This document shows, piece after piece, positions 30,795 to 43,616 of a stretch of DNA of 64,000 nucleotides. Under the pieces are notes generated by a model. The model worked only from the letters and a program-made list of their open reading frames with translations. It ran no database searches and was not told the DNA's origin. Numbering within the stretch: the stretch's first letter is position 1; each line of letters starts with the position of its first letter. The translations under genes were made by a program, and so were the position numbers. The DNA comes from an uncultured Chloroflexia bacterium (GTDB lineage: Bacteria; Chloroflexota; Anaerolineae; JAAYZQ01). The DNA is taken from contig CAVOXA010000014.1 of NCBI GenBank assembly GCA_963700285.1, positions 576,001 through 640,000 on the forward strand, written 5' to 3'.

Positions 30795-31937
30795 ATGCCA
30801 GACAGCGTCAGCAGGCCCTCGAAAAAAGAGCCACAGGCCCAGCCTGTGCCCACCACGCAGGGCATCCTGAAACGCGCAAAAAAGGGGGGAGGTGTCCTGA
30901 TCGATCCCGCTCAGCCTTGGGACGAGGTCCGGGTTCCCACCGAGCTTGCGCGAGCGTATGACCTGGTCGAAGGCGCCACCGTCGCCGGGCCATTGCAAGA
31001 GGGCAGACACGGCCCGCAGCTTGCCGGTGTCGAGTCTGTCTGCGGTCTGGCGCCGGAGGATTTTCAGAAGCGCACGCCCTTCCGCCGCCTGGTGGCCATT
31101 GACCCACTGGAGCGATTCCGGCTGGGCGACACGGGCGACCTGAGCATGCGCATCGTCGATCTGGTCGCTCCCATCGGCATGGGTACCCGGGGCCTGATCG
31201 TCTCCCCGCCCAAAGCCGGCAAGACCATGCTCCTGGAAGGGATCGCCCAGGCCGTGCGGGCGACCGTCCCAGAGACGCGTATCATCATCCTGCTCATCGA
31301 CGAGCGACCTGAAGAGGTGACCTTCTTCCGGCGGGCGGTGCCAGGCGCCGAAGTTTTCGCCAGCTCCGCCGACCAGCGGCTGAAGGATCACATTGACCTG
31401 GCCGAACTGATGCTGGCCCACATCCACACCGAGCTGGAATGCGGCCACGATGTGGTCCTCCTCCTGGACAGCCTGACACGCATGACGCGCAGCTTTAACC
31501 TGAGCGGCTCGAGCAGGGGACGAACCCTCTCCGGCGGGCTGGAGGCCGGCGCCGTCGAGATCCCGCGCCGTTTCTTTGGCCTGGCCCGCAATATCGAGGA
31601 TGGCGGCTCGGTGACCATCATCGCCACCGTCTTGATCGATACCGGCTCGCGGCTGGACCAGGTCATCTTTGAGGAGTTCAAAGGCACCGGCAACAGCGAG
31701 ATCGTCCTGGACCGCGCCCTGGCCGACGCGCGCATCTTTCCGGCGATCAACATCACCGCCAGCGGCACGCGCAAGGAGCACCTGCTCTATGATCCCGGCG
31801 AGGGCCAGCGCATCGCCTGGCTGCGCCGCAAGCTGGCCGACCAGAAGCCCCAGGCGGCCCTGGAAGCGATGTTCCGGCTCATGGACAAGTATCCCACCAA
31901 CGAGGAACTGCTGCAAAACATCCCCCTGGGGAGATAG
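30795..31937 (+). CDS. rho: Transcription termination factor Rho, short form (probable paralog)
   Basis: RGLIVSPPKAGKT, LIDERPEEVT, LDSLTR, IFEEFKGTGNSE and SGTRKE motifs; 380 aa with a reduced N-terminus. Confidence 0.9.
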   Translation: MPDSVSRPSKKEPQAQPVPTTQGILKRAKKGGGVLIDPAQPWDEVRVPTELARAYDLVEGATVAGPLQEGRHGPQLAGVESVCGLAPEDFQKRTPFRRLVAIDPLERFRLGDTGDLSMRIVDLVAPIGMGTRGLIVSPPKAGKTMLLEGIAQAVRATVPETRIIILLIDERPEEVTFFRRAVPGAEVFASSADQRLKDHIDLAELMLAHIHTELECGHDVVLLLDSLTRMTRSFNLSGSSRGRTLSGGLEAGAVEIPRRFFGLARNIEDGGSVTIIATVLIDTGSRLDQVIFEEFKGTGNSEIVLDRALADARIFPAINITASGTRKEHLLYDPGEGQRIAWLRRKLADQKPQAALEAMFRLMDKYPTNEELLQNIPLGR

Positions 31938-32986: not shown

Positions 32987-33006
32987 AATAAAAGGAGATG
33001 CGAGTT

Positions 33007-33702
33007 ATGCACAAACCCATCGGCATCATCGGCGGCATGAGCCCCGAGTCCACAGTGGCCTATTATGAGTACATCACCCGCACCTACACCGAGCGCTATG
33101 GCGACTATGGCTACCCCGAGATCCTCATCTACAGCGTCAGCTTTCAGCCCTACGTCGACTGGCCGAGGGCCGATCGATGGGACCTGGTGGCCGCCGGGCT
33201 GAGCGAGGCCGCGCACAAGCTGGAGGCCATGGGCGCCGGCTGCATCCTCATCGCCACCAACACCATGCACATCGTCTTTGACGAGGTGCAGGCCAGCGTG
33301 GACGCGCCCATGATCAGCTTGCTGGACGCCGTTGGGGCAGCCATCCAGGAGCGGGGCCTGAGCAGGGTGGGGCTGCTGGGCACCGAGTTTACGATGGAAA
33401 AACCGTTCTACCGGGACGCCCTGGCGGAGCAGGGCATCGAGGTCCTGGTGCCGGGCGCCGAGGACCGCCGCTTTGTGAACGCGGTCATCTATGACGAGCT
33501 GGTCGCCGGGCAGATCCTGGACGCGTCGCGGGCCGGGTACCTGGCCGTCATCGAGCGGCTGGCCGGGCGCGGCGCTGAGGGCGTCATCCTGGGCTGCACC
33601 GAGATCCCGCTGCTGGTCAGTGAGGCGGATGCCGGGCTGCCGCTCTTTGATACGACGGCGATCCATGCGGAGGCGGCGCTACGCTTTGCGGTGGAGGGGT
33701 AG
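33007..33702 (+). CDS. Aspartate/glutamate racemase family, YgeA-type (Thr/Cys catalytic pair)
   Basis: IGIIGGMSPEST, IATNTMH and ILGCTEIP motifs. Confidence 0.9.
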   Translation: MHKPIGIIGGMSPESTVAYYEYITRTYTERYGDYGYPEILIYSVSFQPYVDWPRADRWDLVAAGLSEAAHKLEAMGAGCILIATNTMHIVFDEVQASVDAPMISLLDAVGAAIQERGLSRVGLLGTEFTMEKPFYRDALAEQGIEVLVPGAEDRRFVNAVIYDELVAGQILDASRAGYLAVIERLAGRGAEGVILGCTEIPLLVSEADAGLPLFDTTAIHAEAALRFAVEG

Positions 33703-33755
33703 GCGGCCCGCCCCAGGCGCATCAGGATATCCCGGCAGAATCCCCGCCCGGCGAT

Positions 33756-33797
33756 CAAAGATCAGAGGACAGGTTGCAGGGTCCAGGGCACAGGGTG
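33756..33797 (-). repeat. Six degenerate heptamers (NNNYYTG) after DGR target B stop
   Basis: CACCCTG TGCCCTG GACCCTG CAACCTG TCCTCTG ATCTTTG. Confidence 0.75.
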
Positions 33798-33798
33798 C

Positions 33799-36033
<2,235 letters not shown>

Positions 36034-36057
36034 GGTGCAGCACCTCCTGGTCGGCGG

Positions 36058-36281
36058 GTGGCCCCGCCCGAACGGTCGCCCGAGTCCCTTCCGGGACGGC
36101 TACTGGCTCAGGCGGGGCCGGTCCTCTTTGGCCGTCCTGACCTCCGGGTCAGGCTGTGATCCTGGGGTCAGGCAGCGACCGGGGCCGCGGTCTGGAGTCC
36201 CCTCAGAAAGGGTGGCGCTGGCCGCTGGTGAGGGATTGCTGGTCACCACCGGCATTCCCCTGGCCATCCTCCCGGCGACTG
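36058..36281 (-). ncRNA. Structured spacer 3' of the TR (probable 3' part of the DGR RNA)
   Basis: Apparently non-coding, with stems CCTGACC/GGTCAGG, GTCCC/GGGAC and GGCCCCGCC/GGCGGGGCC, in the position where the DGR RNA priming spacer lies. Confidence 0.55.
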
Positions 36282-36318
36282 CTGGCGACGCGAAACCCGT
36301 TGTTGTTGTTCCTGTTGT
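36282..36318 (-). repeat. DGR template repeat (TR), 3' 37-bp remnant
   Basis: AC AAC AGG AAC AAC AAC AAC GGG TTT CGC GTC GCC AG, AAC-rich and colinear with both VRs. Confidence 0.9.
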
Positions 36319-36668
36319 GTGGGCGCCCTTGCCCACGCGGCAGGCATAGCTGTCGTGGATCATGCGCGCTTCAAAGATGGGCCAGGTGACCTGCATCAGG
36401 GCGTGATGGACCACCCGGTCGCGGAAGGGCGCGGCAGAAATGCGCCGGGTCTTGGGCTCGCGGATGGTGAAATGGCGATAGGGGCCGGGCTGGTAGGTCT
36501 TTTCTCGCAGCTCCTCGTGCAGCGCCCAGAGGTTCTGCTCCAGGTCCAGCTCAAAGGCGGCCACCGTGGGCCACTTGCGCTTGCCGCCCCGCCGGGCGCG
36601 CCGCCAGGCCAGCCAGAGGTTGTCAAATCGTAGATCTTGGGATAGAGCCCCTTGAATGTCCGGGCCAT
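36319..36668 (-). pseudogene. DGR reverse transcriptase, N-terminal about 117 codons only
   Basis: MARTFKGLYPKIYD(F)DNLWLAWRRARRGGKR..FELDLEQNL..YQPGPYRHFTIREPKTRRISAAPFRDRVVHHAL..IHDSYACRVGKGAH, then an abrupt join to TR. No YxDD motif; one frameshift near 36626; GAGGT RBS. Confidence 0.9.
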
Positions 36669-36704
36669 GCGCTCTCTACCTCAAAAACCGCCAATTCCGA
36701 TCGC

Positions 36705-36724
36705 CTGGGGGGCACGCCCCCCAG
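36705..36724. promoter_or_regulatory. GC hairpin downstream of VR-A (DGR target-recognition-type cruciform)
   Basis: CTGGGGGG-CGTG-CCCCCCAG on the minus strand, about 65 nt past the target stop. Confidence 0.7.
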
Positions 36725-36739
36725 ACCCCCCAGCAGGGC

Positions 36740-36788
36740 CAGGATTCAAAGGACAGGGTACAGAGCGCAGGATACAGGAGACAGGGTG
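36740..36788 (-). repeat. Seven degenerate heptamers (NNNYYTG) after DGR target A stop
   Basis: CACCCTG TCTCCTG TATCCTG CGCTCTG TACCCTG TCCTTTG AATCCTG. Confidence 0.75.
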
Positions 36789-36789
36789 C

Positions 36790-36916
36790 CTATCCGAGGG
36801 GACCCCTGGCGACGCGAAACCCGCCGTTGTCGATCCTGACGTCCGGGTCGTCGCTGAAACGGAACGCGCACCGCACGGAGGAGGCGTCACTGTACCAGGC
36901 ACCGCCGCGCAGGACC
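36790..36916 (-). repeat. DGR variable repeat VR-A
   Basis: GTC AGG ATC GAC AAC GGC GGG TTT CGC GTC GCC AG versus TR; all mismatches at TR adenines. Confidence 0.9.
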
Positions 36917-39900
36917 TTGTACCGTCCCGATCCTGCTCCTCGCGGATCCCGGGCAACGGCATCAGCCGGCGACGGTAGGTATCCTCCGCATACCAATCGC
37001 GGCACCACTCCCAGACGTTGCCGGCCAGGTCCAGCAGCCCCTCGGCGCTGGCGCCGTCGGGAAAGATGCCCACCGGCGTGGTGCCGCTCCAGGCCCAGCT
37101 CCTCGCGTGTTGGCCCTGCCCGCCTGCCACTCGTCGCCCCAGGGGTAGCGGCGGCCCTCCGGCCCCCTGGCGGCCCGCTCCCACTCGGCCTCGGTGGGCA
37201 GGCGGTAGGTCGTGGCCGTCGTCCAGCGCCGCCGTCAGCCAGCGGCAGTAGGCGACGGCCTCGTACCAGGTGACGCCCACCACCGGCTGGTTGGGGCCGT
37301 TGAACCGGTCGTCGTCCCAGTAGGCCGGCCGGTCGCGTACGTCCCCGACCAAGTCCTTGACCGTGCCCTCAGGCAGCCAGACGCCGGCCGCCCTGGCCTC
37401 GGCCCACCAGCGCTCGTCGGCATAGCCGCCGGCCTCCACGAAACAGCGCGAACATGGCGTTGGTCGTCGGGTAGCGGGCCAGGGCAAAGGCGTCCAGCTC
37501 CACCTGGTGCCGCGGCAGCTCGTCTTGTACCAGTCCTTCTCGTCTCGCGCACCAGCCGCTCCACCTCTGCCTCGTCGCTGCCCATCCAGAAGCGGCCGCC
37601 GGGGATGGCGATGAACTCGGGCAGGCACAGTCGGGCCCGTGAAGCGGGGGTCGCCCAGGCGGCCCAGCACGTCGCCGGCCTCGACCCGGGCCGCCACCGA
37701 CGTCGCCGGCGGGTTCCGCCACAGCACCTCGACCAGGCGGCGGGCCAGCTCGTCGCGGGCGCCGGCGTGCCAGCCCACGCGGCGGGGCGGGATCTCGAGC
37801 AGGGCGCGCCCGGCCCAGGCCAGGCCGTAGGCCCGCGGCATCGCCCTCCCCGGGCAGGTCGCCCAGCTCGTCCAGCAGGAAACGCCGCGCCTGCTGCGGC
37901 CACTGCAGCAGGTAGCCGGCGACCAGCAGCAGCACCTCGCGCCACCAGCTCTGGCCCGGCGTGGGCCTGCAGAAATGCGCCCCACTCGGCCGCTGCCGCG
38001 CAGGTTGTCCACCAGGTAGTTGGCGGCCAGGAACTCCTGCACCGTCAGGTGGTCGCCAAAGCTGTAGCCCTCCTCGTGGGCATAGAGCAGGCCGCTGCGC
38101 TCGGCCATCAGCGCCGACAAAGTCGGCCGCCTCGCGCTCGGCGCCTGGCGCTCCTCCAGCCCCAGGTAGTCGGCCATAAAGGGGGCCAGGATGCGCCGCA
38201 CCAGGTCGCGCTCGTCGACCACGACCAGGCCCTGGCGCGCGGCCGCCGTTCCGCTCGCTGCCGCGGCCCCCTGGTGGACCTGGTAGGCGGCGTAGGTCAG
38301 AGGTAGAGGCGGCGGTCCTCCGGCGGGCCAGCGGTCGCTCGCGCAGGCGCTGGGCCGCCTCGGCGCTCTCCTCCTCGTGCAGCCGCTCGCCCAGCAGCAC
38401 GTCCACGTAGGCGTTGTACAGCTCGGCGCGCTGCTCGGGCAGCTCGCGGTCGGCATAGTGGATCAGGGTCGCCGTCCAGACCATCAGCGGCGTCTTGACC
38501 ATCTCTTGCAGCAGCGGCGCGGCGTCGATGCGCGCCAGCAGCAGGCGGGCCGCGCTCGGCGGCCAGCGCCGGGATCCGCCTCCAGCCCGGCGTAGAGGCG
38601 CTTCGACCATCGGCGCCCACTGCTCGCGGGTCAGGTCGCGCACGGTGGCCAGGTGAAAGCGCTCGTCGAGGCGGGTGTTGGCGCCGGCGTAGGCCGCCAC
38701 GCGCGCCGTGACCAGCAGCCGGTTGCCCGGAAAGGCGTCGGCCAGGCCCTCGATGACCTGGCGCATGGCGATGCGGTGGTCGAAGTCGGCCACCTCGTCC
38801 AGGGCGTCCAGCAGCAGCCAGGCCCGTCCCGCGCGCACCAGGCCGCTCGAGAAAGCCGGGCGGCACGCAGTCGCGGGTGCCAGCGCTCAAAGTGGTCGTC
38901 CAGGAAGCGCAGCAGGCCCTCCACGTCGCGGCGGTAGGTCTCCGGCTCGGTCTGGCAGGCGTGCTCGAAGTCGCGCAGGGCGACGATAGACGGGCAGGGG
39001 CAGTCGCCCGGCCCGCTCTCCAGGCCCAGCTCGCGCGCGGGCCAGTCCGGGTCCCGCCTCGGCCAGCACGCTGGCCACCAGGCGCAGCACGGTGCGTCTT
39101 GCCGCAGCCGGCCGCGCCGATCAGGACCAGGTGGCCCGGCGCGGCCAGCACCTCGGCCAGGTCGATGTCGGTGCGGGACAGGTCGCGCTCCACGGCCCCG
39201 AGCTCCGTCTCCTTGCCCCGCAGGCGGCTTTCCAGGTCGGCCCGGCTGAGGTGCAGGTCGAAGCGCAGCGGCACGTAGATGCCGGGCCGGCCCTCGTCCT
39301 CCAGCAGGGAAAAGCCCGGCGGCGCGCCGCGCAGCTCGGAGAGCTGGCGGTAGGGGCGGGTCTCCAGCCGCCCGCACTGGCCGCGCACCACCTCCAGGTA
39401 GGCGGCGACCAGGTCGGGATCCGGCCGGAAAGGGATATCGTCGGCCCCTGTGTCGAGATCAGGCTCAAGCGGGAGCCCGGCCGGAGGTGCCTCGGCCAGA
39501 ATCATGTCGCCCAGTCCCTCCGTGCGGGCCGTGGGTTCCTGAATCAGCCCCCCATGTTCCACGTTCCAGCGACGCAGGCCATCCAGCACGTGGAGCTTGA
39601 GGTCGTCCACGGTGACAAAACCCTTGCCATCACGGTCGGCCGAGCCGCTGAACCCGTCCAGGAGATAGTAGGTAAAGACGCCGTGCTCTTTTTCCTCCCA
39701 CTCCTGGGCAACCTGCTGGGAGGAACTGGCCGCAAGCAGGGCAAAGCCTTCGGCCAATTCGTAGGCGTTGCGGATGAACGCGGGATCGGCCAGGTCCCGG
39801 CCGATCTCAACGCCCGTGTGACAGGCATCGAAGGTGAGCACCAGCCGGCGCGACTTGCTCTGGCGCATTTGCCGCTCAACCCACGACAGCGGCAGGGCCT

Positions 39901-40582
39901 TCTCGGCCAGGGTTGACCTGCGCGTCTCGCGCGTAATCAGTACCGGTACCCCATTCACTGTTTTGCCGTGACAGGAAAAGTGGACCCACAGGAGATCGTC
40001 CGGCCCGGCAACCTGGCAGAGCCGGGCCAGCTCACCCTCCACATTGTCGCGGGTGGGCTGCAGGTGTTCCTCGGCCGCGGCGTCGTGCAGGGCAACGGTG
40101 GTGTAGCCCCGGGCCTGGAGCGCAGCCTCCATGGCCACGACGTCGTTGACACAGAACCGGAGATCAGGAATGGCAGGATCGATGAAATGGTTCACGCCCA
40201 CCAAAAGCGCCCAGCGGGCGCGGATGGGCCCGGCCGGAGTATCAGGCTTTGGCCAAGGAACAGGAGACAGCCGCCGGCCGCCAGGCGGATTTTGCTCCTC
40301 CTGCCCGGTACGGCTGTACAGCGCTGGCTCGAAGCGGGCGTACTGGAGGGGGTTCGCCTCCTTGACATCGGCAAGGAGATCGTCCCAAAGGAGCCGGGTA
40401 CGGCAGTAGTCTATGACCTCGTCGACCATGTCGTCCAGGCCGTGGCCAGGGCCGAATCTAACTACAATGGGTTGGAAGAGTAGACGGTCCTGACAAAACC
40501 GGCGCAGGTCCTGAGGGGTAAAGGCCGCTAGCAATAGCTCTCGGATGGCGCCAACATTGTAGGATGCAGTCTGGTCAGTCAT
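36790..40582 (-). CDS. DGR target A: EAD-like domain + caspase-like peptidase (C14) + NACHT/STAND NTPase + FGE/CLec domain (many frameshifts between 36.9 and 39.1 kb)
   Basis: [22 protein letters not shown] (EAD7-like, inferred); [20 protein letters not shown] (His/Cys dyad); [10 protein letters not shown] and LLLDALDEV (NACHT); [27 protein letters not shown] and VLRGGAW..GFRVA (FGE); GGGAGG RBS. Confidence 0.85.
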
Positions 40583-40738
40583 GGGGCCTCCCACATGCTA
40601 TGACTTTGCGGAGACGATGGGTCTCAACAGCGCCCAGGCTATCGAGTAGAATCGGAATACCACGGGCACCATCGCCACCCCGGTCGTGCCTCTGGCCGGC
40701 GAGAGCCGCGAGGTTTCTCTTTTCGTCAGGCACCCGGA

Positions 40739-40767
40739 ATTATATCATCGCTGATGGGAAAAAGCAA
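40739..40767 (-). promoter_or_regulatory. sigma70-type promoter for the DGR island
   Basis: TTGCTT, 17 nt spacer, TATAAT with extended -10 TG on the minus strand. Confidence 0.7.
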
Positions 40768-40823
40768 GCATCGTGTTGCAAGCCCGTTGGCAGGGGAAGG
40801 AGCGTAGGACTGCTGCAAGGTCA

Positions 40824-40925
40824 TCATCGCGAGCGTCAGCGCCTGTCCCGAGCCTGCCGAGGGAAAGCGATCTCTACCTGTGCCCTGGGGATTGCCACGG
40901 CGCAAACAGCGCGCCTCGCAATGAC
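40824..40925. repeat. REP/RPE-like inverted repeat of the 10.9-kb family with a nested insert
   Basis: TCATCGCGAGCG..[GCCTGTCCCGAGCCTGCCGAGG]..GCGATCTC ... GGGATTGCCACG..CTCGCAATGAC. Confidence 0.7.
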
Positions 40926-41111
40926 AGATCTGGCCGGCAGTGCATGTCGAGGGACAATGCAATAGCCCTGGGTGAACCCGAGAGCAGGGGAAGGAGCATG
41001 GTTCCGCCCTTGCTTGCAGCGCGCTACTATGCTATACTTACCTTCCTGGAATCGGCCAGCTTTGGGCAAGCTGGGAGTTTCCAGGAAGGTGTCAGTAGAG
41101 GAGGCTCAAAG

Positions 41112-43520
41112 ATGACCCAAACCACATCCCAGGCGCCGGAGGCTACAGCCCTTTGGTCCCCGGCCAGCAACCTCTCCCCCCGCGTCCAGCGGCTGCGAGA
41201 CCAGTACTGGGACTTTTACGAACGCGATTACACCAACGAGGTACGCGCCTACACCACCGGCACCTCCTGGGACCAGGTCTATGTCCCCTGGAACTGGACC
41301 AACGTCTCCGAGATGATGATCTTTTTCGCGGGAGCCAAGGCATACCTGCTGGCCGGCGCCAGCCCGATTTCGCTGCCGCCCGGCTTCTGGGACCTGCCGC
41401 TGGTGGTACGGCGGGCCGTCTTTTTCAAGCGCGTCGTGGAGGAGTACCTGCCGGTGCAGATCCTCGAGGGCGAGCTGGTTGTAGGCTCCCACTTTTCCAC
41501 CGCGCTCTCCCGCTCGCTGACCCGATCCGAGGCGCGCCAGTTCGCCAAGATGGAGAAGCGTTTCATAAAAGATGTCCAGCGGCTGGACAGGCTGGGCATC
41601 GGCAACTGCGGCGCCGTGCCCGGCCACCTGATCCCCGACTATGCCCGGGTGCTGCGGGAGGGTTGGCGGGCCATCAAGGCTGAGGCCGACGCCGCGGCCG
41701 GCGACCCGGGAGCAACAACCCAACGGCGGGAGCTGGCCCGGGCCATCTCTATCTGCGCCGATGGCGTGCGCGCCCTGGCCGAACGCTACGCCAGCCAAGC
41801 CGAGGCCTCGGCCAGGAACGAGGCTGACCCGCTCCGCCGGGCCGAGCTGGCCGAGACAGCGCGCATCTGCCGCAAGGTACCCTGGGAGCCCGCCGAGACC
41901 TTTCCCGAAGCCCTGCAAGCCCTGTGGTTGACTCACATGCTGGTCATGGTGGCCGAAGGCTACCCCGGTCCCGGCGTTTCCCCGGGCCGCATCGACCAGT
42001 ACCTCTACCCAACCTTCCGCGCCGGCCTGGACTCGGGCGAACTCACGCGGGAGCAGGCCAGAGAGTGGCTCCAGTGCCTGTGGATCAAGCACAACTATGC
42101 CTACGACTATCAGGGTTGGGTGGGCACCAACCAGGGGATCAACGCCTCTTTTGGCCAGCTCGTGACCTTGGGCGGCATCGATGAGCAGGGCGAGGACGCC
42201 AGCAACGAGTTGACCTTCCTGCTCCTGGAGGTCATCCAGGAGATGAACCTGTTGGAACCCAAGCCCAACGTGCGCCTCCACCAGAATACACCCGCGCCGC
42301 TTCTGGACCGGGTAGTGGACATGGTTGCCCAGGCCCAGGGCAGCCCATTCCTGCTCAACTTTGACGAAAAGTCAATGGCCGGGCTGCGCTGGCAGGGCCT
42401 GCCCGAGGCGGAGCTGTGGGACTATGCGCCCGTCGGCTGCCTGGAGAACACGCTGCAGGGCAACGACCGCTCGGGCACGGTCGACGTCAACCTGAACCTG
42501 GCCAAGGCCGTGGAACTGGCCCTGCACGATGGCCGGGACGCAGCCACCGGCGAGCAGGTTGGCCCGCGCACGGGCGATCCACGGACCTTTGCTACCTTTG
42601 AGCAGTTCCTCGCCGCGCTCAAGGCTCAACTGAGCGCCAGCATGGAGCTGCTGATCGCGGCCAACAATATCGCCGATAGGGGCCGGGCTCGATTCGAACC
42701 CACACCCTACCTGAGCGCGCTGGTAGACGGCTGCCTGGAGAACGGCCTGGACATCACCGCCGGCGGCGCCCGCCACAACTATCTGACCGTCGAAGGGGTG
42801 GCCCTGGCCACCACGGCCGACAGCGCCGCGGCCATCAAAAAGCTGGTCTTTGACGATGGGGCTGTGACCATGGACGAGCTGGTGCGCGCCCTGGACGCCA
42901 ACTTTGAGGGGCATGAAGCGCTGCGCCAGATGCTGCGCTACAAAGCACCCAAGTTTGGCAACGACGATGGCGATACCGACGCGCTGGCCTGCGACATCAG
43001 CCGCCTCTGGACGACAGAGGCGTTTGAGCACGTTGCGCCCGAGACCGGCAAGCGCTACCGGGGCGGCTATCTGTCCTGGAACTACTGGGTGGCCTACGCG
43101 CCCAAAACCGCGGCCACCCCGGACGGCCGCCTGCGCGGCCAGTTTTTGAGCAACGGCGTCTGTCCCGTGAACGGCGCTGACCGGCTGGGGCCCACGGCCG
43201 TGGTCAAGAGCGTGGGGCACCTGGGGCTGGAGACCGCGCCCAACGGCGGGTCGCACACCATGAGCTTCTCACCCAGCCTGCTACAGAGCCCGGAGAACCG
43301 GGGCAAGCTGGCGGCGCTGCTGCGGGCCTATGCCCACGTCGGCGGCACCTGCTTGCAGATCAACGTCGTCGACCCCGGCACCCTGCGGGCCGCGCAGCAA
43401 GATCCAGACGCCTATCGCAACCTGTTGGTGCGGATCACGGGCTATAACGCCTATTTTACGATGCTGGGCAAAGAGATCCAGGACGAGATCATTGCTCGCG
43501 AGAGCCACGGGCTGGGCTAA
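41112..43520 (+). CDS. Glycyl radical enzyme (PFL-like family, unknown substrate)
   Basis: SPGRIDQYLYP, PVGCLE (Cys loop) and LLVRITGY (Gly loop); GAGGAGG RBS; TTGCTT-17-TATACT promoter upstream. Confidence 0.92.
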   Translation: MTQTTSQAPEATALWSPASNLSPRVQRLRDQYWDFYERDYTNEVRAYTTGTSWDQVYVPWNWTNVSEMMIFFAGAKAYLLAGASPISLPPGFWDLPLVVRRAVFFKRVVEEYLPVQILEGELVVGSHFSTALSRSLTRSEARQFAKMEKRFIKDVQRLDRLGIGNCGAVPGHLIPDYARVLREGWRAIKAEADAAAGDPGATTQRRELARAISICADGVRALAERYASQAEASARNEADPLRRAELAETARICRKVPWEPAETFPEALQALWLTHMLVMVAEGYPGPGVSPGRIDQYLYPTFRAGLDSGELTREQAREWLQCLWIKHNYAYDYQGWVGTNQGINASFGQLVTLGGIDEQGEDASNELTFLLLEVIQEMNLLEPKPNVRLHQNTPAPLLDRVVDMVAQAQGSPFLLNFDEKSMAGLRWQGLPEAELWDYAPVGCLENTLQGNDRSGTVDVNLNLAKAVELALHDGRDAATGEQVGPRTGDPRTFATFEQFLAALKAQLSASMELLIAANNIADRGRARFEPTPYLSALVDGCLENGLDITAGGARHNYLTVEGVALATTADSAAAIKKLVFDDGAVTMDELVRALDANFEGHEALRQMLRYKAPKFGNDDGDTDALACDISRLWTTEAFEHVAPETGKRYRGGYLSWNYWVAYAPKTAATPDGRLRGQFLSNGVCPVNGADRLGPTAVVKSVGHLGLETAPNGGSHTMSFSPSLLQSPENRGKLAALLRAYAHVGGTCLQINVVDPGTLRAAQQDPDAYRNLLVRITGYNAYFTMLGKEIQDEIIARESHGLG

Positions 43521-43616
43521 ACCTCCCGCAGGCTTCACGCGGGAGGCAAGGTGGACGCGTCCAACGATCTTGATGGGCGTCGGGGGCCAGACTCGGCAGC
43601 AAGCCTGCGGGAGGTT
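43520..43616. repeat. Perfect 16-bp inverted repeat (REP-like)
   Basis: AACCTCCCGCAGGCTT (43520-43535) / AAGCCTGCGGGAGGTT (43601-43616). Confidence 0.75.

Follow-up and report, generated by a model that had tools for sequence, protein, structure and literature searches.

When the codons of a reverse transcriptase (RT) run without interruption into the tail of the template repeat (TR) of the same diversity-generating retroelement (DGR), the question arises whether the element is broken in the chromosome or only in its assembly, and whether the genes it served can still be diversified. Such a join is found in the window, the whole 64,000-nucleotide stretch analysed here (G000:C14:576001-640000), which belongs to a genome of 7.05 Mb in 22 contigs that is 89% complete. 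Our best explanation, to which we give a probability of about 0.7, is that a two-target DGR (target 1, RT, avd, TR, target 2) is switched off because the ~1.1 kb that separated RT codon ~116 from the final 37 nt of its TR are missing, most likely as the result of a single near-blunt deletion that really took place in the chromosome. The join is real in the assembly; it is probably real in the chromosome as well, and ordinary decay probably accounts for it.

The junction and the remains of the cassette

Read directly on the minus strand, the RT stub extends from an ATG at 36668 to the codons for KGAH, which end at 36319 (~116 codons), and directly adjoins an AAC-rich TR tail (36318-36299), after which comes a 17-nt IMH*-like stretch (36298-36282); this 17-nt element is also present at the 3' ends of both flanking target genes. 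An earlier note on this DNA had proposed that RT codons run into a TR tail at KGAH within 36282-36668, and this is confirmed by the sequence, by alignments and by the adenine-specific match between TR and VRs. Because Pfam returned no match for the stub alone, including RVT_1, its identity rests on alignment to intact RTs: 105/116 residues are identical to the intact RT of the metagenomic locus L207, with one -1 frameshift near 36628, and residues 12-116 share 64% identity with the intact DGR RT of the same genome. Compared with the stub, the contig of one relative carries one extra base at 36624.

What an active DGR would require is largely gone, and the locus looks like a former DGR. Only RT residues ~1-116 remain, without the catalytic YxDD of a DGR-type RT; there is no Avd accessory gene at the locus, the sole avd of the genome sitting on contig C10; and of a TR of ~75 nt, 37 nt are left, the upstream part being replaced by RT codons and the downstream spacer being kept. 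The absence of the YxDD region, avd and most of the TR, as claimed in the earlier note, extends to the whole assembly: neither these parts of the 36282-36668 cassette nor the missing ~1.1-kb segment was found on any contig of the genome. The fused ORF at 36564-36100 was considered as a new protein and rejected, its read-through consisting of out-of-register TR and spacer, which are non-coding in intact relatives.

The 37-nt tail can be recognized as a TR remnant because its differences from VR1 and VR2 fall at adenines only. It differs from VR1 at 6/13 adenines and 0/24 other positions, and from VR2 at 5/12 adenines and 0/24 other positions (scored on both sides of a 1-nt indel); judged from the sequence, this adenine-only pattern is a DGR signature and not chance. 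Both VRs contain the 17-nt IMH and both targets end in an FGE-sulfatase domain, so that the VRs lie at the 3' ends of CLec target genes. Compared with TR and VR1, VR2 lacks 1 nt at 33850-33870 and, ~25 nt away, seems to have gained 1 nt, which may be a consensus error or slippage in the AAC repeat. Position 36307 is A in the TR tail and in the closest relative, L207, and G in 8/10 relatives and in both VRs.

Among the candidate RNA elements (Table 1), the hairpin is clear after VR1 and weaker after VR2, and a similar one follows the VR of the DGR on C10; the 121-nt region around the post-VR1 hairpin folds no better than shuffled sequences (z 0.52). The post-TR spacer matches a profile built from 67 post-TR sequences of intact loci (E 1.1e-6), and the fold of 36040-36140 has a z of -1.75, with 6/200 shuffles as good. 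The earlier note took a promoter to be still in place; a scan of 35900-36900 for sigma-70-like promoters, which is uninformative for this lineage, gave 0 sites.

Table 1. Features of the cassette, in window coordinates
Feature	Position	Strand	Basis
Whole cassette, accessory island	33709..41135	.	Same-genus genome G001 has 298 bp between the flanks
Target gene 2: KAP NTPase with FGE-sulfatase (CLec) tip; frameshifted in assembly	33799..36033	-	Pfam
VR2 with IMH (33815-33831), 5' end approximate	33815..33885	-	Comparison with TR tail
Post-TR spacer (downstream part of DGR RNA), long GC-rich hairpin ahead of target 2	36036..36281	-	Profile match and fold
TR remnant: last 20 nt of adenine-rich part and 17-nt IMH*	36282..36318	-	20 nt identical to L207 TR; adenine-specific match to both VRs
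Deletion junction, ~1.1 kb missing (RT 3' part with YxDD, avd, TR 5' part)	36318..36319	-	10 intact relatives
5' stub of DGR reverse transcriptase	36319..36668	-	Alignment to intact RTs; ~116 codons, KGAH end
8-bp, 4-nt-loop hairpin, candidate target-recognition stem-loop, downstream of VR1	36705..36724	-	Centroid fold
Target gene 1: EAD7-like, caspase (Peptidase_C14), NACHT, FGE-sulfatase (CLec) tip; frameshifted in assembly	36790..40594	-	Pfam on ORF pieces
VR1 with 17-nt IMH (36806-36822)	36806..36876	-	Differs from TR tail only at TR adenines

Intact relatives, targets and the accessory island

A scan of JGI metagenomes with the RT stub gave 79 loci, and the 10 intact relatives considered here (L203, L205-L207, L209-L212, L216 and L274) are the complete set for which a position could be assigned on either side of the junction. 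They carry an RT, an avd and a TR of the same type, with the same short TR and IMH*, and the stub protein is 79-95% identical to their RTs. Between the positions matching 36319 and 36318 they hold the 1104-1207 nt (1104-1107 in six) that are absent from the junction, which supports the earlier proposal that one deletion took the RT 3' part, avd and most of the TR. The KAP-FGE gene adjoins the cassette in L206, L207, L209 and L216, and L207 has Pfam matches to RVT_1 and bAvd, a full RT and an unframeshifted ORF for the target tested. More widely, the order RT-avd-TR is found in 70/106 distinct full-length RT loci, another order in 14, and 22 are incomplete. All 12 of the 12 adenines in the 20-nt TR tail are unchanged relative to L207, as expected for a deletion at the DNA level.

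A 2-nt AC microhomology at the join had also been suggested, and as written it fails: the overlap is 0 nt in 8/10 relatives and 1 nt in 2/10, and the consensus shows two ACs, whereas microhomology at the join would leave one. It could hold only if the consensus carries a 2-nt insertion error; 3/32 of the target frameshifts described below are of the +2 type. Among public contigs, an RT contig agrees with the window as far as 36318, and four contigs depart from it past 36318 into TR-like sequence; none from the 4 public runs crosses the junction, the contigs of relatives continuing into an intact TR or an intact RT. As the contigs of these runs share only 7-9% of sampled words with the genome, they derive from other strains or species. 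A search of the JGI metagenomes for the exact 31-nt TR-tail pattern gave 0 matches.

Both targets are interrupted in the assembly. Aligned with an intact ORF in L038, target 1 is identical at 749/1098 residues and contains 23 frameshifts (18 +1, 3 +2 and 2 -1); its EAD7 and NACHT assignments are Pfam matches below curated cut-offs, the latter on a frameshifted piece. Target 2 is identical to the intact L207 ORF at 565/727 residues, with 9 frameshifts (8 called +1) and no stop. Together, the 32 frameshifts relative to intact homologues come with no nonsense codon at aligned positions, two stops lying in an unaligned linker, and the C10 RT, taken as a control, has 0 frameshifts. Because the frameshifts are dominated by insertions and lack stops, consensus error fits better than decay; they are likely sequencing-consensus errors, and both targets are, as predicted from these alignments, likely intact.

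The frequency of such errors varies along the genome. Frame switches, a count that includes ordinary gene overlaps, average 2.8 per 5 kb and reach at least 10 in 74/1399 bins; the bin holding the island has 13. Their density rises with GC, from 1.7 per 5 kb at 55-60% GC (479 bins) to 11.6 at 69-72% (5 bins); taken as the sole cause, GC content explains the frameshifts only partly, the genes flanking the island being free of them. The single other high-frameshift patch that was annotated is accessory too, with a SNF2/DrmD-like helicase, so that the comparison is confined to accessory DNA. The island appears poorly polished, and its consensus may rest on few or mixed molecules. Patches with 15-22 frame switches in 5 kb are scattered over the genome, that with the highest count (L200, G000:C15:60000-65000) covering a shattered SNF2/DrmD-like helicase, and pseudogene calls in this assembly need care.

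Comparison with a genome of the same genus, G001, shows that the cassette is an accessory island: its two flanks have counterparts on G001:C2, with 92% identity, and are neighbours there, 298 bp apart, the 7.4-kb cassette being absent from G001. From their motifs, we take the flanking open genes at 30795-31937, 32998-33702 and 40773-43520 to encode a short Rho-type factor, an Asp/Glu racemase and a glycyl-radical (PFL-like) enzyme, respectively.

Other DGRs of the genome and truncated RTs elsewhere

Three DGR RTs are present in the genome: that of a complete DGR on C10, the stub at 36319-36668 and an RT on C1. The C10 DGR (L002, G000:C10:225500-228900, plus strand) comprises an FGE target, an RT with YCDD, an avd and a short TR, and G001 holds an RT 90% identical to that of the C10 DGR, with avd and TR. 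A palindromic AACCTCCCGCAGG-type repeat, REP- or MITE-like, has several copies in the C10 DGR (G000:C10:227020-228950) and also occurs in the intergenic stretch at window 43520-43610. Another RT on C10 (L001, G000:C10:652823-653683, minus strand; RVT_1, in a 484-aa frame) is 26% identical to the DGR RT and is possibly of the group II intron type. The C1 locus (L003, G000:C1:1725060-1725953, minus strand) contains a second join of an RT to a TR tail; there the RT keeps YMDD and ends at residue 289, its GF codons have ~10 nt in common with the GFR codons of the TR tail, and neither avd nor any other part of the TR is left. Upstream of this join are two tandem FGE targets.

The search for joins of this kind covered 400 genomes from the class, 400 from the phylum, 60 relatives and 80 further genome loci. 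By hand, we selected from these 36 RTs that, away from any contig end, were either truncated or interrupted by an internal gap. Dropped before the count were L074 (N gap), L076, L123 and L186 (contig ends), full-length frameshifted RTs, L196 (insertion), L187 (degraded), L081, L082 and L092 (other subfamily) and the duplicates L006, L106, L121 and L143. Six of the 36 are joined to a TR on the same strand (this locus, C1, L068, L072, L077 and L098, the last by its spacer profile only); the rest comprise one join to an opposite-strand TR (L075), one to avd, three internal to the RT, two to the post-TR spacer (one weak) and 23 unplaced. Of nine additional truncations from metagenomes, two of which represent a single event, one is an opposite-strand TR join (L219) and none is a same-strand TR join. 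Overall, 6/45 truncated RTs are joined to a same-strand TR, two of them in this genome and the others in four other genomes. The lesion is, on these sequences, apparently not peculiar to the present assembly, because the same type recurs at C1 and in G142, G259, G290 and G371, three of these four being assemblies of 250-870 contigs.

Among deletion ends that fall inside the cassette, 6/10 lie in the TR, compared with ~8-15% expected by length (binomial p 4e-5 to 1.4e-3), and 4/8 do so when this genome is left out (p 0.002-0.02); hand-picking, missed short internal deletions and kinship weaken these statistics, and we consider the clustering of deletion ends in the TR a modest lead. L214, L075/L143 and L219 form a cassette family in which the TR is on the strand opposite RT and avd, and in two members RT deletions end at or inside the TR. 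An inversion as the cause of the reversed TR of L075 was rejected, since the intact L214 also has an opposite-strand TR. In L095 (G013:C613:94-570), RT residue 57 is joined in frame to avd residue 11, and the TR is intact.

Origin and consequences of the join

We propose that a single near-blunt deletion, presumably by ordinary illegitimate recombination or end joining, removed the RT 3' part, avd and the TR 5' part and would have killed the element in cis. Without the catalytic half of the RT, Avd and the RNA upstream of the TR, no mutagenised cDNA would be made for VR1 or VR2, and in cells carrying the deletion allele both sensor tips would stay as the last rounds of homing left them. An avd deletion, a TR deletion and a YMDD mutation are described as negative controls for the Bordetella DGR (PMC12875486).

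What may speak against a deletion in the chromosome is that no contig in the 4 public runs bridges the junction and that the island carries 32 frameshifts in the targets and one in the RT stub. The deletion could be real and yet represent one allele, part of the population keeping an intact cassette that still diversifies VR1 and VR2 and the assembler having written the short form. The error density of the island suggests low or mixed coverage, there are contigs of relatives with 97-99% similarity in the post-TR region, of which X4 record 25 (3 differences in 158 nt) continues past 36318 with non-RT sequence, and intact and degraded DGR variants are reported to coexist in one Thiohalocapsa population, DGR 3 and 7 of strain PB-PSB1 providing the precedent (PMC10907252); against this, the public contigs come from other strains or species, and we regard a mixed population as possible but unlikely. 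A pure assembly or chimeric-read artefact, the chromosome being intact, would be in line with the high indel rate of the island and the lack of an independent bridging contig. Collapse of a repeat by the assembler is unlikely, on the other hand, because the junction ends share no repeat (overlap 0-1 nt); moreover, the missing 1.1 kb is on no other contig, the errors seen are 1-2 nt in size and joins of the same type occur in other assemblies, which makes an artefact very unlikely. Finally, the targets might still be diversified in trans, as the earlier note envisaged, either from the template of the C10 DGR or by the C10 RT and Avd acting on the TR remnant. The search of the genome for an intact RT and a complete matching TR did yield the former, in an intact DGR (RT with YCDD, avd, TR) on C10, and the post-TR spacer and IMH* survive at the deleted locus; it yielded no TR matching VR1. 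Elsewhere in the genome, the sequence that most resembles a template for VR1 is the C10 TR, with 13 non-A mismatches in 71 nt (13/51 non-A sites) and a different IMH, which does not support service by another DGR. In Thiohalocapsa, service in trans is inferred for VRs that agree with a TR at every one of the non-A sites (PMC10907252); by this standard, as that source gives it, the targets would not be served in trans, because no complete TR in the genome, which is 89% complete, matches at all of them. It is likewise unlikely that the C10 proteins could rescue the remnant, because everything upstream of the last 37 nt of the TR is lost here and cDNA synthesis in Bordetella is reported to require 20 nt upstream of the TR (PMC6182149), a requirement that may carry over to this clade. 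A second cognate DGR could be missing from the incomplete genome; even so, we consider continued service in trans extremely improbable.

For a real deletion, two other origins may be considered. In the first, the DGR itself would have made the deletion: a short cDNA would anneal to the TR in place of the VR, after which its free end would jump to a cryptic site within the RT gene, and the TR would thereby be a hot spot of self-inactivation. The excess of deletion ends in the TR, the two further ends in opposite-strand TRs (L075 and L219) and the cryptic 5' integration sites known in Bordetella (PMC3240598) are in agreement with this. However, 0/12 tail adenines are changed, an outcome with a chance of 0.07-0.002 at 20-40% change per adenine, and about half of the available positions are reported to change per event in Bacteroides, less near VR ends (bioRxiv 10.1101/2024.11.15.621889). 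The overlap of 0-1 nt also compares poorly with the at least 8 nt of identity described for cryptic integration (PMC3240598), the C1 join is explained by the ~10 nt common to its RT and TR, the nine metagenome truncations added no same-strand TR join, and the loci behind the excess were hand-picked, with short internal deletions missed and kin not independent; a DGR-made origin is therefore improbable. Selection offers another route, by which the deletion would lock in useful VR variants, removal of the TR being the only way to freeze a target amid other DGR RTs. Both broken DGRs of this genome lost the TR while an intact RT remains on C10, and G259 and G371 also keep an intact RT; G142 and G290, on the other hand, have no other RT of this kind with the queries used, and the targets, both frameshifted in the assembly, may not be intact. 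We consider selection for frozen variants doubtful at best. The broader idea that DGRs switch themselves off, mis-homing of TR cDNA onto the TR or selection to remove the template making the TR a hot spot for deletion ends and the RT-to-TR-tail scars the footprint of a built-in route of freezing, is a similarly long shot.

Two-target DGRs with NACHT/KAP-CLec proteins in multicellular bacteria, including degenerate loci without RT or TR, have already been described (Dore et al. 2024, PMC10907252), and filamentous chloroflexi are named there among the hosts of clade 5D DGRs. Like the DGRs of Thiohalocapsa PB-PSB1 and clade 5D, the present one has two single-CLec targets with a central NACHT or KAP NTPase, some of those described also having peptidase effectors, and its genome contains several DGRs, some without RT or TR (PMC10907252). 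The likeness to clade 5D appears in the predicted target architecture, a single CLec with a central STAND or KAP NTPase. The damage described for Thiohalocapsa PB-PSB1, on the other hand, is by transposons and MITE arrays, some loci being served in trans (PMC10907252), whereas here a clean RT-to-TR join is found without a matching template. The adenine-specific relation of TR and VR, the IMH/IMH* pair, the stem-loop after the VR and the Avd family in intact relatives are shared with the DGR of Bordetella phage BPP-1 (PMC3240598, PMC6182149, PMC12875486); unlike in that element as it is described (mtd-avd-TR-brt), the order is RT-avd-TR, the TR is shorter (~75 nt), the targets are cellular NTPase-CLec proteins and the catalytic core is absent. 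Searches by title or opening lines, in mostly open-access literature, turned up none on RT-to-TR joins, and Figs S3 and S4 of PMC10907252 may show such breakpoints.

Together, these data describe an ordinary degenerate DGR in an accessory, defence-type island, of a kind for which degenerate loci with such targets are already published (PMC10907252). Its value lies in showing how such predicted defence-sensor proteins stop diversifying, with breakpoints that intact relatives resolve to 1-2 nt, and in pointing to a class of loci that pipelines requiring RT plus TR miss. If the excess of deletion ends in the TR held in a large unbiased sample, this would suggest that retrohoming has an undescribed by-product or that selection favors the freezing of variants.
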